From contig CAVUKA010000001.1 in assembly GCA_963741945.1 (NCBI GenBank), positions 736,001-800,000 on the forward strand: a stretch of DNA of 64,000 nucleotides, read 5' to 3'. Numbering within the stretch: position 1 is the first letter of the stretch; the number at the start of each line of letters is the position of its first letter. This DNA comes from an uncultured Gemmatimonadales bacterium (GTDB lineage Bacteria > Gemmatimonadota > Gemmatimonadetes > Longimicrobiales > RSA9). Below the pieces are notes generated by a model. That model had not been told where the DNA came from. It searched no databases and was given only the letters and a program-made list of their open reading frames with translations. Positions 37,118-59,212 of the stretch are shown here, piece by piece. The translations under genes and the position numbers were made by a program.

Positions 37118-37155
37118 GCCGCCAGGGCCGGAGGGGCCCGGGTCGCCTGCCTGTC

Positions 37156-37180
37156 GGGTTCTGTTTGCGGGAGTTGTTGG
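37156..37180 (+). repeat. solo copy of 25-bp IS1595-end-like motif
   Basis: GGGTTCTGTTTGCGGGAGTTGTTGG between convergent genes; 37151-37180 matches 46277-46306 at 29/30. Confidence 0.85.
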
Positions 37181-37199
37181 CTGGCCGCCCGCCCACCCG

Positions 37200-44527: not shown

Positions 44528-44586
44528 GCTTACAGCCCCGGGCCTGCCTCCGACGTCGGCAGGCCACTTCATCCGCTTCCGCTTTC

Positions 44587-44623
44587 CTCACGGGCACGCG
44601 CAGGGGATGCGTGTGCCCGTGAG
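44587..44623 (+). terminator. 16-bp stem hairpin downstream of csp
   Basis: CTCACGGGCACGCGCA-GGGGA-TGCGTGTGCCCGTGAG. Confidence 0.5.
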
Positions 44624-44733
44624 CGACGTCTGTTCTGCCCGCCCATGGGAGCCGGATGCGGTGGGAGCGCCGGGGCCCCGCCCTCGGTGATGGTGCTCGC
44701 CGCGGCCCGGTCGGCTGGCTAGAATCCCGCCCC

Positions 44734-46053
44734 ATGCCGAATCGGATCCGCACCTCCCTTGGCCGCGCCTTCCGCGCGCTCCGGCGACGAAACTACAGGC
44801 TGCTGTTCGTCGGTCAGGCCATCTCCCTGACGGGGACGTGGATGCAGCAGCTGGCGTTGAGCTGGCTGGTCTATCGGCTGACCGGCTCCGCCTTCTTCCT
44901 CGGGCTGGTGGCGTTCGCGGGCCAGTTGCCCGGGTTCGTCATTGCCCCGCTGGCCGGGGTGCTGGCGGACCGGTGGAACCGTCACCGCATCGTGATGACC
45001 ACGCAGAGCCTCGGAATGGTGCAGGCCGTGGCCATTACGGTCCTGGTCCTCGGCGGCTGGGTCCAGGTCTGGCACATCGTGGCGCTGGCAGCATTGCTCG
45101 GCGTGGTCACGGGCGTGGACATACCGGCGCGCCAGGCGCTGTTCGTCGACCTCGTCGAAGGCGACCGCGAAGACCTCGCCAATGCCATCGCGCTGAACTC
45201 CTCCCTGTTCAATGCGACCCGCCTGATCGGTCCATCGCTTGGCGGCTTCCTCATCGCCGAGCTGGGGGAAGGTCCGGTCTTCGCGATCAATGCGGTCAGC
45301 TATGTGGCCGTGATCGCGAGCCTCGCCGCCATGCGGCTGCCCCCGCTGGTGCCGGGGGCCGCCACGGGGAGCGTGCTGGAGCGCCTGCGCGAGGGCTTCG
45401 GCTACGCCGCCGAGTTCCAGCCCATACGGGCGTTGCTCCTACATCTCGGCGCCGTGGCGCTCGTGGGTATGCCGTACGTGGTACTGCTCCCCGTTTTCGC
45501 CGACACTGTGCTCGGCGGCGGTGCACGCACCCTCGGGTTGCTCATGTCCGGCGCGGGGCTGGGGGCGCTCATCGGCGCGCTCTGGCTGGCGACGCGGCCC
45601 AGCGTGCGCGGCTTGAGCCTCGTCATCACCGTCGCCGCAGCCGTGTTCGGTGTGGGGCTGGTCTGCTTTTCTGCCAGTCGCGCGCTCCCGCTGTCCATGG
45701 CGCTCCTCGTGGTCACGGGCGGCGGAATGATGGTCATGTCCGCGTCCACCAACACCGTCCTCCAGACTGTGGTGCCGCCCGCTCTCCGCGGCCGCGTCAT
45801 GAGCCTTTACACCATGGCATTCATGGGCATGGGGACGATAGGCTCTCTCGCGGCCGGCTGGCTCGCGACGCGCTTTGGCGCACCGCCCACCGTGGCACTC
45901 GGAGGCCTCGGCTGCATCGCCGCCGCAGCCTGGTTCGCCCGACAACGCGCCGCGCTGCGGGACCATGTCCGTCCCATCTACCGGGAGCTCGGCATCATAC
46001 CCGAAGTCGCTTCCGGCCTCCTCAACGCGAGCGAGTTGCGAACGCGAGGCTGA
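44734..46053 (+). CDS. MFS transporter (MFS_3/EntS-like)
   Basis: GQAISLTGTWMQ, GVLADRWNR, NAIALNS, LRGRVMS. Confidence 0.9.
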   Translation: MPNRIRTSLGRAFRALRRRNYRLLFVGQAISLTGTWMQQLALSWLVYRLTGSAFFLGLVAFAGQLPGFVIAPLAGVLADRWNRHRIVMTTQSLGMVQAVAITVLVLGGWVQVWHIVALAALLGVVTGVDIPARQALFVDLVEGDREDLANAIALNSSLFNATRLIGPSLGGFLIAELGEGPVFAINAVSYVAVIASLAAMRLPPLVPGAATGSVLERLREGFGYAAEFQPIRALLLHLGAVALVGMPYVVLLPVFADTVLGGGARTLGLLMSGAGLGALIGALWLATRPSVRGLSLVITVAAAVFGVGLVCFSASRALPLSMALLVVTGGGMMVMSASTNTVLQTVVPPALRGRVMSLYTMAFMGMGTIGSLAAGWLATRFGAPPTVALGGLGCIAAAAWFARQRAALRDHVRPIYRELGIIPEVASGLLNASELRTRG

Positions 46054-46281
46054 CGGCCGGGAGCGACGCCCCCGATACCGGACGTTCCGCGGCGATGATC
46101 GGCCCCCAGCGCATCGCAGGAGCGGCCGGGTGCGGCCGGCGAGGCACGGTGCGGCCGGCGAGGCCAAGTGTGGCCGACAAAGTCCGGTGCGGTCTGTCGG
46201 TACGAAGGACGACGAGGGTGCAAGCACAGCCCCCGGGCGAGCGGCCGCGCTGTCGCGCTCTCCGGAGGCCACCAGGCTGTC

Positions 46282-47694
46282 GGGTTCTGTTTGCAGGAGT
46301 TGTTGGACCCCTCTTCCGATGATCTCCCATGAGCCTGTGCGGTGGGGTTCTGTTGGCGGGCATTGTTGGGATCACACGACGCGGTCTGCCGCCCCACGCT
46401 CGCAGCACGGAGGAGAATGTCCCCCCTAGCCATGGAAGTGCCCGGCGCGGCGAGGCACAGTGCTCCCCATGGCGCACCGCCCACCCCTTTCCTCACGGAG
46501 CATCCGTGCCGAGCCAGGCACGATCCGACGATGCGCACCAATGCCGCCGTTGGTGCCAACGCCGCACCGCGCTGTCAATCGGCCGCGCTGCGATCTCTTC
46601 CCGCAGCTGCGGCTGCAGTCGATCCCATTCCCGTTCAATGAGTTTCGCCGGACCGCCTTCGGCCATCGACGGCCCTGCCCCCGCTGCGGCGGGATCCGCG
46701 TATACGGGTGGGGCGGATTCCGCGGACGTCGTCGCTTTCGCTGTGTCGCATGCGGCCGCACATTCAGCGACTTCACCGGCACGCCGCTCCAACACCTGAA
46801 ACGCCTGGACCGCTGGCTCCCCTTCTGCGCTGTGTTCGGCATGGGACTGACCGTCCGTCGCACAGCCAGCCTCCTGGGCATCGACCCGACGACATCGTTT
46901 CGCTGGCGACACCGCCTCCTCGGCCCCGTCGTCGCCAGCGAGCATTATCCGCTCTCCGGGTTCGTGGATTGGGGCGATGCCTGGTTCACGTTCTCCGAGA
47001 AGGGCAGCCGAAGGCTCGATCGCCCGGCGAGGCGGCGGGCGCCACCTTTCTGGAGCGGCGGCGAGCCGCGCACATACGTGCTCCTGGCCAACGACAGCCA
47101 GGGGCGCGCCGTTGGGCGGCACGTTGGAGCGCGGCGGCCGGGGCGGACCACGGTGCTGGAGCTCGTGATCCCGCGCGTTGCGCCGGGTACTACGCTGCTC
47201 ACCGAGTGCGGACCGTTCGGGGACGGCGCCCGCATCGCCCGGCTCACGGGATTGCCCTGGCGCTGGCGACGCAAGCTCGATCGCGCCACCGCCCCATCCC
47301 TCGAGCCGCTCCGGGTCTACACCTCCCGCCTGAAACGGTGGATGCGGCCATTTCACGGGGTCGCGACGCGCTACCTCGATCACTACCTCGGGTGGTTCAG
47401 GCTCGTCGACGGTCCGCTCGTTGAAGCCGGCGACCCGGTCCCGGCGGCGCTCATCCTGTCCTCCGGCCGCTTCCCCTGACCTGCCGGCAGGGTCCTCGGC
47501 GGCGGATGCCGGATCCGAGGATTGGAGGGCGGCCAGAGGGGTTCAGGTCGCCCGCCAGGCACGCCAGCAGGTTGGATCGGCCGCCAGCGTCGGGGTCCAG
47601 GCCGCGCACCCCACAATTCCCGCGAACAGAACCCCATGGGGCTGATCGCCGACGCTGCCCCACTGCCCCAACAACTCCCGCCAACAGAACCCCA
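46282..47694. mobile_element. IS1595 (ISPna2-like) derived element with doubled inverted ends
   Basis: Motif copies at 46282-46306 and 46345-46369 (+), 47610-47634 and 47668-47692 (-); 46343-46370 vs 47667-47694 match 26/28; no target duplication seen. Confidence 0.75.
46541..47479 (+). CDS. IS1595-family transposase homolog, catalytic residues apparently lost
   Basis: Zn ribbon CPRC...CVACGRTF, TGTPL, HTH TSFRWRHRLL, SRLKRWMRPFHGVATRYLDHYLGWF; start uncertain. Confidence 0.82.
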   Translation: MPPLVPTPHRAVNRPRCDLFPQLRLQSIPFPFNEFRRTAFGHRRPCPRCGGIRVYGWGGFRGRRRFRCVACGRTFSDFTGTPLQHLKRLDRWLPFCAVFGMGLTVRRTASLLGIDPTTSFRWRHRLLGPVVASEHYPLSGFVDWGDAWFTFSEKGSRRLDRPARRRAPPFWSGGEPRTYVLLANDSQGRAVGRHVGARRPGRTTVLELVIPRVAPGTTLLTECGPFGDGARIARLTGLPWRWRRKLDRATAPSLEPLRVYTSRLKRWMRPFHGVATRYLDHYLGWFRLVDGPLVEAGDPVPAALILSSGRFP

Positions 47695-47837
47695 GTGAAT
47701 CGAGGGGTTGGCCTCCACCTCCGCTGGGCTTAGGGTGCGATATCATGAGTGCCCGGGGCGGATCGCCGGGGGCCCGCGTCTGGTCGCCGAGCTGGCAGGC
47801 GCGGCGATATCCCAACGCTCGGAGGAGAAACCGAACG

Positions 47838-48032
47838 ATGGCGGAGATCGAGTACGAACGCGAGAACGAGCGCGTGGTCATTGCCAGGCAGGATGGTGAG
47901 GAGGTCGCCCGGATCGTAGAGGTCCCCGGCACGAACGTGACGAGCTTCCGCATGAAGGATGGCAGCAAGCGCGGCGATCGGGTGGCCGACCTGGAGGAGG
48001 CCAAGAAGCGGATCGAGAGCTACCTCAGCTGA
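47838..48032 (+). CDS. small hypothetical protein (64 aa)
   Basis: GGAGGAG RBS, strongly biased codon usage, hairpin after stop. Confidence 0.7.
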   Translation: MAEIEYERENERVVIARQDGEEVARIVEVPGTNVTSFRMKDGSKRGDRVADLEEAKKRIESYLS

Positions 48033-51845: not shown

Positions 51846-51862
51846 ACCGGGGCGCGCGCCCG

Positions 51863-51948
51863 GCGCTCTGTTCGCGGGAGTTGTTGGACACGCGCGCTCC
51901 GAGGTCGGACACGGCCGGCGGCGGGGCGCTGTTCGCGGGAGTTGTTGG
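51863..51948 (+). repeat. tandem pair of the 25-bp IS1595-end-like motif
   Basis: GCGCTCTGTTCGCGGGAGTTGTTGG (51863-51887) and GGGCGCTGTTCGCGGGAGTTGTTGG (51924-51948), 36-nt spacer. Confidence 0.88.
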
Positions 51949-51964
51949 GCCACCCATCACCCCC

Positions 51965-52711
51965 TCACGGCGCCACCGCTCCGTAAAGCCGCGGCAGATC
52001 CTGCACCGTCACGATTCCCAGCAGTTTCTCCGATGACGCGCCGGTGGACGTGACGAGCACCGCCTCCAGCCGCCGGCCGCGCGCCGGCGCTTCCGTGAAC
52101 AGTCGCACCACGTCCGCCACCAGGCGGTCGCGCGACACGAGGTCGAAGCGCTTCACCCCGTTCCCGAACTCCAGGACCTCCCGCACGGGCTCCTCGTGAA
52201 GGGTGTCAAGCGGCCCGGCCAGCTTCGTGGCGATCCAGCGCGCAATGGCATGGGCGGTGAGCAGGCCGATCAGCTCGTCGCCGGCGTACACGGGCAGTCG
52301 CGTGAACCCGCCCTTCACCATCCGCTCCGCGGCTTCCCCGATCGGGTCCTCCGCCGAGCAGGTCACCACCGGTCGGGACATGGCCTCGTCGATCCGAGGG
52401 GGGTGGACGAGCAGGGCGACGATGGCGTCGAGCCGCTCCACCGTCGCACCGTGCGGCTCCGCGATCACGTACCCGCCGCCCCTGTCGTGGACGATGGCGT
52501 TCCGCAGGTCGGCGAACTCCAGCAGGTCCTCTTCGACCGCCCGCACGACGACGTTGCGTTTCGCCGCCTGCCTCACCATCCAGCGGAACGAGTCCTTGGA
52601 CGACGTCCCCAGCATCCGCTTCAACGCGTCTTCCGCCTGTGCGAACGCGATCAGGAATCGATCAGAATTCGTCTCGGCCACGGCCCCCTCACCGTCGGTT
52701 TCGGCAATCAC
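51965..52711 (-). CDS. CBS domain protein
   Basis: LRNAIVH N-terminal motif, FTRLPV...GLLT, LLGIVTVQDL. Confidence 0.85.
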   Translation of the reverse strand: MIAETDGEGAVAETNSDRFLIAFAQAEDALKRMLGTSSKDSFRWMVRQAAKRNVVVRAVEEDLLEFADLRNAIVHDRGGGYVIAEPHGATVERLDAIVALLVHPPRIDEAMSRPVVTCSAEDPIGEAAERMVKGGFTRLPVYAGDELIGLLTAHAIARWIATKLAGPLDTLHEEPVREVLEFGNGVKRFDLVSRDRLVADVVRLFTEAPARGRRLEAVLVTSTGASSEKLLGIVTVQDLPRLYGAVAP

Positions 52712-52742
52712 GGCCGCAACATACGACGCCCGACGCCGTCGG

Positions 52743-53537
52743 TCACGGCAGCTTCAAGCCCACCCACTCGGCTGGGCCGGCAGTGGCGGGGGCGACGAGG
52801 AGGACCACGCGCCCACCCCGGAACGCCGGCCGAAGCCGATTCCCCAGCTGGACGACGCCGCGACGCACCGCTGCCCCCGTCGCAAGGACCCGGACCTCGT
52901 CGACGCCGCGGGCCCGGATCTCGGCCACCGTGTGGAGACCGCCGAACGGGTCCGGCCAGGGCCAGCCGCGACGATGGACGACGCGCCCATCGTCGCCAGT
53001 GAGGCGGAGCCCGGCGGCGGCGAGCGCACCGATGACGCCATCCTCGGTGCCGCCGAGCCCTTCCAGCTCGAGCCCGAGCTGTCGGGCCAGGCGGCGGGCT
53101 TCAGCCTGGGGGACCGGCTCGCGTTGGCAGCGGCGACCGAACGCGACGAGCGGACAGGGGACCGGCGGGGCGGGATCGGGCGGCGCAGCCAACAACTCCC
53201 GCGAACAGAGCTCGACGGGGGCCACCACCACCCCCGGATCGCTGCCCTCAGGCGCGAACTCCCGGATGGCGTTCCGGAGGAACTCCATGAGCACGGCCGG
53301 CAGTGGGGCCTCCAGCGTCCGACGGTGCTCCCCCGTCGCGGTCACGTCGATGGACGCTGCCCCGTTCTGGCTGGTGAAGGGGATGCGTGGATCCTTGAGC
53401 AGCTGGTGGCGGAGGACGATGTCGGCTTCGAACCCCGCCGGCAGAGTCTCGGCAATGCTGCGCGCCAGCTGGTTTGTCCCCGGCGCCCCGATGATGTCGG
53501 TGTCGTCGAGCCCGATGATCAGCTTCCGGCTAATCAA
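52743..53537 (-). CDS. TiaS (tRNA-Ile2 agmatinylcytidine synthetase) N-terminal-like protein
   Basis: IIGLDDTD...[35 protein letters not shown] start overlapping upstream stop. Confidence 0.7.
53189..53213 (-). repeat. 25-bp motif copy inside coding sequence
   Basis: CCAACAACTCCCGCGAACAGAGCTC, read as ELCSRELL. Confidence 0.85.
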
Positions 53538-58132: not shown

Positions 58133-59212
58133 ATGAGCGATGGGAGAATGGGGCAGGCGGGCGACGGCGAAGGCGCAGGGGGCGCCGCCAACAATTCCCG
58201 CGAACAGAACCCCAGTGATCTGGGCCGCCGCGCGTTTGTGCGGGCGGCTGCTGGCGCGGCGGCGACACTGACCGGCGCCGGCCTGCTGTCCGCGCCGCTA
58301 CTGGGCGCCAGCACCAGCCGCGGGCGCCGCGCCGCCGGCCACCGTCCCCCGGCGCTCGCGCCCGAGCCGTGGGGCAGTCTCGTCCCCGTCGCCGAAGACG
58401 CCTGGGCAGTGATCTCGACGCCGCTGGCGTCCGGCCCCGAAGCCCGGCGCACGGTGTGCAACGGCGGGCTGGTCGCCGGCAAGGACGCGGTGCTCGCGAT
58501 CGAGGGGTTCGCCTCGCCCGCCGGCGCCACGTGGCTCGCGGCGGAAGCTGAGCGGCTGGTCGGCCGTCCCCCCACGCATGTCGTGCTGACACATTACCAC
58601 GCCGATCATACGGGCGGCACCGTGGGCTACGTCCGCGACGGCGCGCCGCCCACGATGCTCGCGACCGAGACCACTCGCCGCCTGACGGCCCGGCACGAGG
58701 CCGAGCTGCGCGATGGCGCCAGGGCCGCTCCGCCGGTGCTGCTCCCCGACCACCTGATCCCGGATCAGGGCGATCCCGTCGAGCTCGACCTGGGCGGCCG
58801 GCACGTCCGGCTCGTGGGGCGCGCGGGGCACACGCCCAGCGATCTGGTGGTCGAGCTCGGCGACGCCCCCGTGATCTTCACGGGAGACCTGGTCTGGATC
58901 GGCATGTTCCCGAACTACGTGGACGCCATCCCCTCCCTGCTCTCCCGCAACGTGCGGGCGTTGCGCGCGCAGAACGCCGAGACCTACGTCTCCGGCCACG
59001 GGACGCTGGGCACGCCCGCAGATCTCGACCGCTACATCGCCCTGCTGGACCATGTCGAGACCGCAGCCCGCCGTGCCGTCGACGCCGGCCTCCCCGTAGA
59101 ACAGGCCGCGGCCGATTATACGATCCCGGCGTCGCTCGGGTCGTGGCACATGTTCTCCCCGCGCTACGCCGAGATGGCGTTCAGGGCCTGGGCCCGGGAG
59201 CTGGCGGACTAG
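58133..59212 (+). CDS. Tat-exported MBL-fold metallo-hydrolase
   Basis: GRRAFV twin-arginine, THYHADH, GHTPSD, TGDL, SGHG. Confidence 0.88.
   Translation: MSDGRMGQAGDGEGAGGAANNSREQNPSDLGRRAFVRAAAGAAATLTGAGLLSAPLLGASTSRGRRAAGHRPPALAPEPWGSLVPVAEDAWAVISTPLASGPEARRTVCNGGLVAGKDAVLAIEGFASPAGATWLAAEAERLVGRPPTHVVLTHYHADHTGGTVGYVRDGAPPTMLATETTRRLTARHEAELRDGARAAPPVLLPDHLIPDQGDPVELDLGGRHVRLVGRAGHTPSDLVVELGDAPVIFTGDLVWIGMFPNYVDAIPSLLSRNVRALRAQNAETYVSGHGTLGTPADLDRYIALLDHVETAARRAVDAGLPVEQAAADYTIPASLGSWHMFSPRYAEMAFRAWARELAD
58188..58212 (-). repeat. 25-bp motif copy within the 5' end of the MBL gene
   Basis: CCAACAATTCCCGCGAACAGAACCC followed by CAGTGA as at 47693. Confidence 0.85.

Follow-up and report, generated by a model that had tools for sequence, protein, structure and literature searches.

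Can a transposase that has lost its catalytic residues go on serving as a DNA-binding protein, and if so, what does it bind? This question is raised by a gene at 46541-47479 (plus strand) of the window analysed here, a 64-kb stretch (contig 1, 736001-800000) of the genome of an uncultured Gemmatimonadales bacterium (G000; 4.09 Mb, 70% GC). The gene encodes a protein of the IS1595 family of insertion sequences (IS) in which all three residues of the D-D-N catalytic triad are replaced, and copies of a short repeat lie on both sides of it. We propose, with a probability of roughly 55%, that the product derives from an IS1595-family transposase, can neither cut nor join DNA any more, and has kept the ability to recognise the terminal inverted repeats of its own element by means of its zinc ribbon and helix-turn-helix (HTH). 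Alignment and phylogeny place it in an old clade without the triad, drawn largely from Longimicrobiales-type Gemmatimonadota, whose members are single, mutually diverged copies with cognate repeat flavours.

An IS1595-type gene without a catalytic triad

The open reading frame (ORF) runs from ATG 46541 to TGA 47479 (312 amino acids) without interruption, as an earlier note on this DNA had stated, and the strings quoted there (VDWGDA, LLTEC, SLEPLRVYTSRLK and FHGVATRYL..YLGWF) are all found in its translation. Two further starts, GTG 46460 (339 amino acids) and ATG 46469, lie in the same open frame on the plus strand, leaving a start uncertainty of 72-81 nucleotides; the true start may be ATG 46469, 72 nucleotides upstream of ATG 46541, because its product opens with MAH, as do three orthologues from another genus. 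Numbered from ATG 46541, the protein comprises a zinc ribbon (C46/C49/C68/C71), an HTH around FRWRHR (residues 120-125), a degenerate RNase-H-like region (residues 137-284) and a C-terminal motif, W267..F271.GVATRYL..YL.W285. GC content at codon positions 1, 2 and 3 is 0.69, 0.59 and 0.83, with third positions of host genes at 0.85-0.90.

Homology to the IS1595 family, also claimed in the earlier note, is supported by two NCBIfam profiles, NF033547 (IS1595 transposase; 75.9 bits, just above the cut-off of 75) and NF050000 (IS1/IS1595 zinc-binding; 31.5 bits against 28), while the Pfam models PF12762 (DDE_Tnp_IS1595; 23 bits, cut-off 27) and PF12760 (19.8 bits, cut-off 25.4) fall short. On these scores the homology is real but degenerate. 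The PF12762-type domain can be aligned end to end with triad-intact relatives, the RNase-H-like fold is probably retained, and the four zinc-ribbon cysteines are invariant in 124 aligned sequences. A sequence search of the PDB with the family profile returned zinc-finger noise only (E at least 0.0025), and PADLOC found no match for the protein, for its paralogue in the same genome (P0039) or for a small ORF downstream.

The claim that all three triad positions are changed had been made against an ISPna2-type pattern, and it stands when that pattern is replaced by an alignment with the nearest triad-intact relatives. With IS1595 groups taken as in ISfinder, these are multicopy elements of Pseudoduganella, Massilia, Janthinobacterium, Aromatoleum and other Pseudomonadota. 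Their sequence at the catalytic positions is EADETY / L(V/A)(T/S)DG / H(V/L)Q(N/T)VN(A/S)YH(S/G)RFK. At the D, D and N columns the protein of the window has G145, C223 and R258 (D to G, D to C and N to R); the K at +7 is retained.

A probable single old loss of the triad

We aligned 250 homologues drawn from two protein searches, the first yielding 1135 proteins at E <= 1e-3 among 8000 scored and the second 3427 cluster representatives at E <= 1e-3, with 215 at <= 1e-30. The triad residues are all missing in 164 of the 250; the first D alone is kept in 32, the second D alone in 12, the third residue alone in 12, the second and third together in 2, and all three in 28. These 28 intact proteins fall within one clade of 30 tips (support 0.976; FastTree, trimmed alignment, midpoint rooting), and none of the 220 homologues outside that clade carries a full triad. 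On this tree, one old loss is therefore the simplest history.

The pattern of conservation separates the active site from the rest of the protein. While the triad columns are 100% conserved in the 28 intact proteins, the commonest residue there reaches only 25%, 14% and 38% in the 222 others, and the same relaxation is seen across E143, D145, E146, D223, H242, H253, Q255 and N258 (93-100% in the intact set, commonest residue 14-50% in the triad-less set). Conservation of 93-100% persists among the triad-less proteins at the four cysteines, at RWRH and S.KG, and along the C-terminal motif W..F.GVA..YL..YL.W; W57, R63, S76-D77 and K87, all N-terminal, are conserved in that set only. This alignment agrees with the proposal in the earlier note that selection has kept DNA binding but not catalysis: the zinc ribbon, HTH and C-terminal motif are at least 93% conserved, and the active site reads as specifically relaxed, with the DNA-binding and C-terminal parts retained. 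Acidic residues make up 20%, 21% and 4% at the three catalytic columns of the triad-less set, with no conserved acidic residue at or near them. Transposition by DDE chemistry is almost certainly beyond these proteins.

Where members of the clusters that contain the protein are named, they come from Longimicrobiales. Public records list such genes as 'IS1595 family transposase' or 'hypothetical protein', and their scores exceed the NCBIfam cut-off, which makes them an annotation issue. Literature searches, with supplements outside their scope, returned no account of a bacterial triad-less IS1595 clade. A protein atlas also lists look-alike clusters with a low share of PF12762 matches (only 20-32% of members), for which Bacteroidota and Actinomycetota are given as the commonest phyla, hinting at degenerate IS1595-type clades in other phyla. 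In one genus (G228, G229, G230 and G232), matches to the protein end near residue 250-256 within open frames of 369-645 amino acids; they possibly represent a variant whose C-terminus differs or is longer.

The repeats are the ends of the element

The gene is bracketed by a motif of 27-30 nucleotides, present as two direct copies on the left and two inverted copies on the right that are 84-93% complementary. On the plus strand, the outer left repeat (GTCGGGTTCTGTTTGCAGGAGTTGTTGG) lies at 46279-46306 and the inner left repeat, 63 nucleotides after it, at 46343-46370; on the minus strand, inverted relative to these, the inner right repeat lies at 47609-47639 and the outer right repeat, 58 nucleotides from the inner, at 47667-47697. 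The repeats sit 59-171 nucleotides ahead of candidate start codons. Throughout the window, the 15-nucleotide core of the repeat has 15 matches against 3.1 expected.

Active relatives of the family form units of 1054-1100 bp, in 5-7 copies per genome at 89-100% nucleotide identity, and two of them (L048, from Aromatoleum, and L049) are flanked by the 8-bp duplications ATTTTCTT and GAGAAATT. Their ends read GGCTATGTCACCGTTAGCTGTGG or GGCGCTGTCACCCGAGCCTGTGG, and both the GGGTTCTGTTCGCGGGAATTGTTGG of the window and the GGTTTCTGTCACCGGGAACTGTTGG of the paralogue align with them. By this alignment, the terminal inverted repeat of the element and the repeat around the gene are one and the same, with homologous sequences at the ends of the active relatives. 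It starts with GG, as expected of the IS1595 family, and conservation runs some 3-5 nucleotides past this canonical end, with the consensus CCAT(C/G) ahead of the GG. The earlier note had described the repeat as a dispersed motif; this description does not hold, as the copies number only 12 and cluster near the gene instead of being spread over the genome.

A census of repeats by nhmmer across 33 related loci of other genomes found the same layout, plus-strand copies upstream and minus-strand copies downstream, in 15 loci; in 4 loci the gene is immediately preceded by an inverted pair. Mean repeat identity was 80% within a locus and 65% between loci, and for 25 of 42 copies the nearest copy belonged to the same locus. 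Because copies within a locus are more alike than copies from different loci, each gene can be said to have its own repeat flavour. When the units of the doublets in the window are compared, the alignment is limited to the core of the repeat.

Sequencing contigs (two DNA sets from one study, fragmentary) showed no joints of the element; loose ends at 47634 and 47688 lead to other repeat copies. Just beyond the right repeats is the small ORF mentioned above, of 95 codons at 47745-48032, which has no Pfam or PADLOC match. Its DNA is 77% conserved at the nucleotide level in a genome of the same genus (G001) that is without the element, and we therefore place it outside the unit.

Distribution and selection in relatives

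Among 73 genomes of the bacterial family, 41 contain a match at E <= 1e-15 (27 of the 44 high-quality genomes), with a presence structured by genus: 7/7, 3/3 and 4/5 in some genera, 0/3 in three others. In a sample of the phylum outside the family, 2 of 196 genomes have a match, and the copy in one of these two is triad-intact; a full triad was found in just 1 of 32 readable loci (33 loci from other genomes, with L018 incomplete). Copy number ranges from one to seven per genome, and the seven copies of one genome are 43-58% alike. No near-identical copies occur in any of the 73 genomes, the top within-genome identity seen being 62-65% at the amino-acid level. The source genome has two gene copies in total, the second being the triad-less P0039 on contig 3 (46% identical to the protein of the window), and a search of it found no triad-intact relative.

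The paralogue lies just downstream of a cstA-like gene (L002, contig 3, 645595-646714). Ahead of it stands an inverted pair of 31-nucleotide repeats in the paralogue's flavour (97% complementary, 25-nucleotide spacer), which could also act as a hairpin at the cstA transcript's end. Its orthologue is syntenic in the same-genus genome, with translated identities of 78-93% for the flanking genes and 52-59% for the gene; the ratio of non-synonymous to synonymous substitution rates (dN/dS, NG86) of this pair is 0.23, dS being close to saturation. A syntenic orthologue at 80-82% amino-acid identity is also shared by three species of another genus, the trio whose products open with MAH, and its dN/dS (NG86) is 0.14-0.21 at dS 0.56-0.83. 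The end repeats of the trio are identical at 26-27 of 30 positions on the left and 27 of 28 on the right, amid adjoining non-coding DNA with only 19-31/58, 19/91 and 30/60 identical positions. Because the dN/dS of the trio is low and its repeats are conserved within diverged non-coding DNA, both the triad-less protein and its end repeats are under purifying selection in these relatives, with the unit staying in place. Neutral decay of the orthologues, which the earlier note named as a finding that would overturn its reading, is thus contradicted by these ratios.

The same data bear on one alternative, a neutral relic: a dead, decaying insertion sequence whose frame is intact by chance in GC-rich DNA. 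The weak Pfam scores agree with decay, long spurious ORFs are common in DNA of 70% GC, and the copy in the window has no orthologue and so provides no direct measure of selection. We nevertheless hold this to be very improbable, for 69 of 70 family matches contain no internal stop and all 7 pairs measured, paralogue pairs among them, have a dN/dS of 0.13-0.44 (the lowest, 0.13, being L009/L020 from genome G017). The zinc-ribbon cysteines and C-terminal motif are, moreover, invariant across hundreds of clusters at 30-50% identity, and the GC content of the gene's codon positions is host-like.

Satellite repeats around the gene

Beyond the ends of the element, further copies of the repeat are found as satellites in the window. 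A solo copy between two convergent gene ends (37153-37181, plus strand) lies in some 90 nucleotides that are absent from the same-genus genome, and a doublet just past a stop codon (51860-51948, plus strand; two direct copies, 64-nucleotide period) likewise belongs to about 100 nucleotides absent there. Together with an inverted solo copy (53188-53218, minus strand), this doublet brackets a CBS-domain gene (51965-52753, minus strand), the doublet being at its 3' end and the solo some 440 nucleotides upstream. The bracketed span, 51860-53218, measures 1.36 kb, the same size as the element; we considered and rejected the possibility that it is the remnant of a second gene copy, as it encloses the CBS-domain gene, no piece of a transposase was found within it, and a search of the genome gave no further homologue. 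A fourth satellite (58187-58216, minus strand) lies in frame in the N-terminal region of a gene with a twin-arginine (Tat) signal (GRRAFV) and a metallo-beta-lactamase fold (58133-58330 in the window), where it encodes ANNSREQNPS before the twin arginines. The same-genus orthologue lacks exactly those 10 codons, so that the repeat is a clean extra stretch of 30 nucleotides.

A repeat-profile search of the whole source genome gave 23 matches at E <= 10, comprising 12 of type A (the flavour of the window gene), 8 of type B (the flavour of the paralogue) and 3 weak ones. All 12 type-A copies are on contig 1 at 773,153-889,675, a stretch of 117 kb reaching from 9 kb upstream to 106 kb downstream of the gene (782.5-783.5 kb), and the 8 type-B copies form four inverted pairs on contig 3 at 618,100-688,071, a stretch of 70 kb around the paralogue (645.6-646.4 kb). 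In 160 kb of collinear sequence the same-genus genome has no type-A repeat at E < 1, and the type-A copies of the source genome are located at synteny breaks or in extra stretches relative to it. Around the shared paralogue, the same-genus genome has the flavour CAGAGGG where the source genome has CACCGGG; its satellites are at other sites, and the paralogue satellites of the source genome have no counterpart there.

Arrays of at least three units are tandem duplications of 50-60-nucleotide units. One such array in the same-genus genome (L127, contig 1, 624244-624388) holds three tandem copies of that genome's flavour with a period of 57-59 nucleotides and similar spacers, at a place where the source genome has no repeat. 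The period of 58-64 nucleotides also suggested a reading as clustered regularly interspaced short palindromic repeats (CRISPR), which we rejected since the 'spacers' in arrays of at least three units are themselves duplicated.

At the site of the element itself, the same-genus genome has 1.0 kb with a different small membrane-protein-like gene in place of a 3.2-kb stretch. This swapped stretch (44584-47787) consists of an MFS_3 transporter gene (44656-46053) and the element, and represents a gene-content swap between sister species. Exact empty sites could not be defined for the element or its satellites, as the intergenic DNA of the sister genomes is too diverged for boundaries, except in the 30-nucleotide case.

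A predicted self-recognising DNA-binding protein

Sequence-specific binding of the repeat by the zinc-ribbon and HTH part is the best-supported mechanism for the protein, argued largely by analogy with InsA of IS1. InsA is the DNA-binding part of the IS1 transposase, and in the available text of PMC12428005 it binds both ends of its element and represses the promoter at the left end. By this analogy, the protein would bind the two left and two right repeats around its gene as well as nearby satellites, and would shut down its own promoter next to the left repeat. It might also occupy or bridge the ends, bridging being conjecture on our part, and the doubled ends and nearby satellites are predicted to provide extra binding sites. 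The repressor or architectural protein suggested in the earlier note is thus a candidate role. The beneficiary could be the host, through regulation, local DNA bridging or the blocking of incoming active relatives, or else the module's own persistence.

That incoming relatives are the main target, with an InsA-like, binding-only protein kept by the host as a guard against active IS1595 elements and the resident repeats serving only self-regulation, is a separate explanation. In its favour, active relatives have ends homologous to the resident repeat. InsA, as far as the available text goes (PMC12428005), vies with the IS1 transposase for the two ends of the element, and very little transposition is left. 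Triad-intact relatives are nearly absent from the phylum sample (1 of 32 readable loci). Private, fast-diverging repeat flavours, however, fit self-recognition better than recognition of a common invader, and the source genome holds no active relative that would select for a guard. We consider this explanation unlikely.

Several observations weigh against a quiet, self-recognising regulator. A simple scan for sigma-70-like promoters found none, with the limit that the model may not fit Gemmatimonadota. The gene has no orthologue in the same-genus genome, and no flanking genes are shared between loci apart from the same-genus pair. Most satellites are situated between convergent gene ends and not at promoters, and mobile repeats tend to be tolerated in such places. 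The satellites are lineage-specific, yet they match the flavour of the resident gene in both sister species, and since lineage-specific copies carry that flavour, the copying of repeats post-dates the loss of the triad. Flavour-matched, lineage-specific repeats still appearing near the gene after that loss are a misfit for a quiet host regulator; tandem duplication explains the arrays, but not new sites kilobases away. Finally, in about 23 related loci, 8-bp direct repeats resembling target-site duplications were found at the expected offset at L008 (8/8) and L013 (7/8), both with triad-less proteins; with mismatched flanks as the null, P(>=7) is 0.004 per pair, or 0.2 expected in 47 pairs.

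A rival explanation is a working mobile system of very low activity, in which the protein, through non-canonical residues or with a helper nuclease, would move or copy repeat-ended DNA, preferentially near the donor. Such a system would move whole units rarely and short repeat units more often, in the manner of the REP (repetitive extragenic palindromic) sequences and their RAYT (REP-associated tyrosine transposase) proteins, on a DDE scaffold. Consistent with it are the flavour-matched satellites clustered around each paralogue, with the sister species having its own flavour at other sites, the extra stretches that stand out cleanly against the sister genome (one measuring exactly 30 nucleotides), the direct repeats at L008 and L013 despite triad-less proteins, and the absence of the window copy from the same-genus genome. 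In addition, the interval between the flanks, which in the trio contains the element and spans 1736 bp, is without it and only 316 bp long in another genome of that genus, although the DNA there is too diverged for an empty site to be defined. The alignment argues the other way, with no conserved acidic residue at or near the catalytic columns, as do the lack of near-identical copies in the 73 genomes and the lack of a triad-intact relative in the source genome to act in trans. Moreover, arrays grow by tandem duplication of 50-60-nucleotide units, for which no transposase is needed, and the element is not flanked by a duplication (best 4-6 of 8 positions, within the null distribution), nor is any pair of satellites. 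Because tandem duplication cannot account for new sites kilobases away, we retain low-level mobility as a substantial minority possibility, and continue to prefer an inert protein that recognises its own ends.

Comparison with known systems

The comparisons that follow draw on the accessible parts of the papers cited. The element resembles members of the IS1595 family in its single ORF with an N-terminal zinc ribbon, an HTH and a C-terminal region similar to the DDE_Tnp_IS1595 type (PMC8101967), in belonging to the range of ~1.0-1.4-kb units and in inverted repeats starting with GG, which can be aligned with the repeat of the window. It differs in that the D-D-N triad is gone, there are no near-identical copies and no 8-bp duplication, the ends are doubled on both sides, and conservation extends ~3-5 nucleotides beyond the GG terminus. 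On sequence grounds it is derived from the IS1595 family and should not be filed as an active member, because the triad, the 8-bp duplication and recent copies are all missing.

The system appears to work most like InsA, with which the protein shares the IS1/IS1595 zinc-binding N-terminus (NF050000). InsA, however, is the shorter of the products of an active element, whose transposase arises by frameshifting, whereas the protein described here is full-length and has no active form in its genome.

The genomic arrangement recalls RAYT (TnpA-REP) systems, which likewise comprise single or few diverged copies flanked by cognate repeats (PMC5581495, PMC8266576), with paralogue-specific flavours and extragenic solos, doublets and inverted pairs, often at the 3' ends of genes. 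RAYTs, as described in the text available to us (PMC5581495), belong to the HUH-Y1 enzymes, have kept their catalytic residues and are accompanied by REPs that number tens to hundreds across the genome, in contrast to a DDE-type scaffold without its triad and 8-12 copies confined to the neighbourhood of the gene. The HUH-Y1 (IS200/IS605-type) fold was not matched, and the only family matches in Pfam and NCBIfam were of the IS1595 and IS1 types.

TldR proteins, nuclease-dead repressors derived from TnpB (10.1101/2023.11.30.569447), offer a parallel in that catalysis was lost and the protein kept as a sequence-specific DNA binder, a role which for the protein of the window is predicted. In the available portion of that account TldR is RNA-guided and found outside its transposon, whereas the protein considered here is predicted to read DNA directly and still lies between its old ends. 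Domesticated transposases of the IS1595/Merlin type in eukaryotes belong to the same superfamily, and the DDE motif is unconserved in some of their conserved copies (PMC8101967, PMC3558436); they differ in their eukaryotic hosts, and the accessible part of PMC8101967 reports no retained cognate ends.

Implications

The most far-reaching idea suggested by the satellites is that the triad-less IS1595 clade still makes new copies of its 28-30-nucleotide end repeats near the gene, with each paralogue maintaining a private flavour of its own. We regard this as doubtful. If true, a REP/RAYT-like system of repeat and keeper would have arisen independently on a DDE scaffold without DDE chemistry, through a non-canonical active site or through recruited host nuclease or replication-repair enzymes. 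The lineage-specific spread of repeats after loss of the triad is, in any case, the part of these results that may surprise specialists.

Domesticated DDE-type transposases are well known in eukaryotes. The well-documented cases of domestication in bacteria are, to our knowledge, of other types, such as the RAYTs and the TnpB-derived TldR proteins. The gene described here is likely a bacterial example of a transposase turned DNA-binding protein. A large and old triad-less clade in which selection maintains both the protein and its former ends offers a natural series for following the change from transposase to site-specific DNA-binding protein, and the private flavours clustered around its paralogues would allow the co-evolution of protein and site to be studied.

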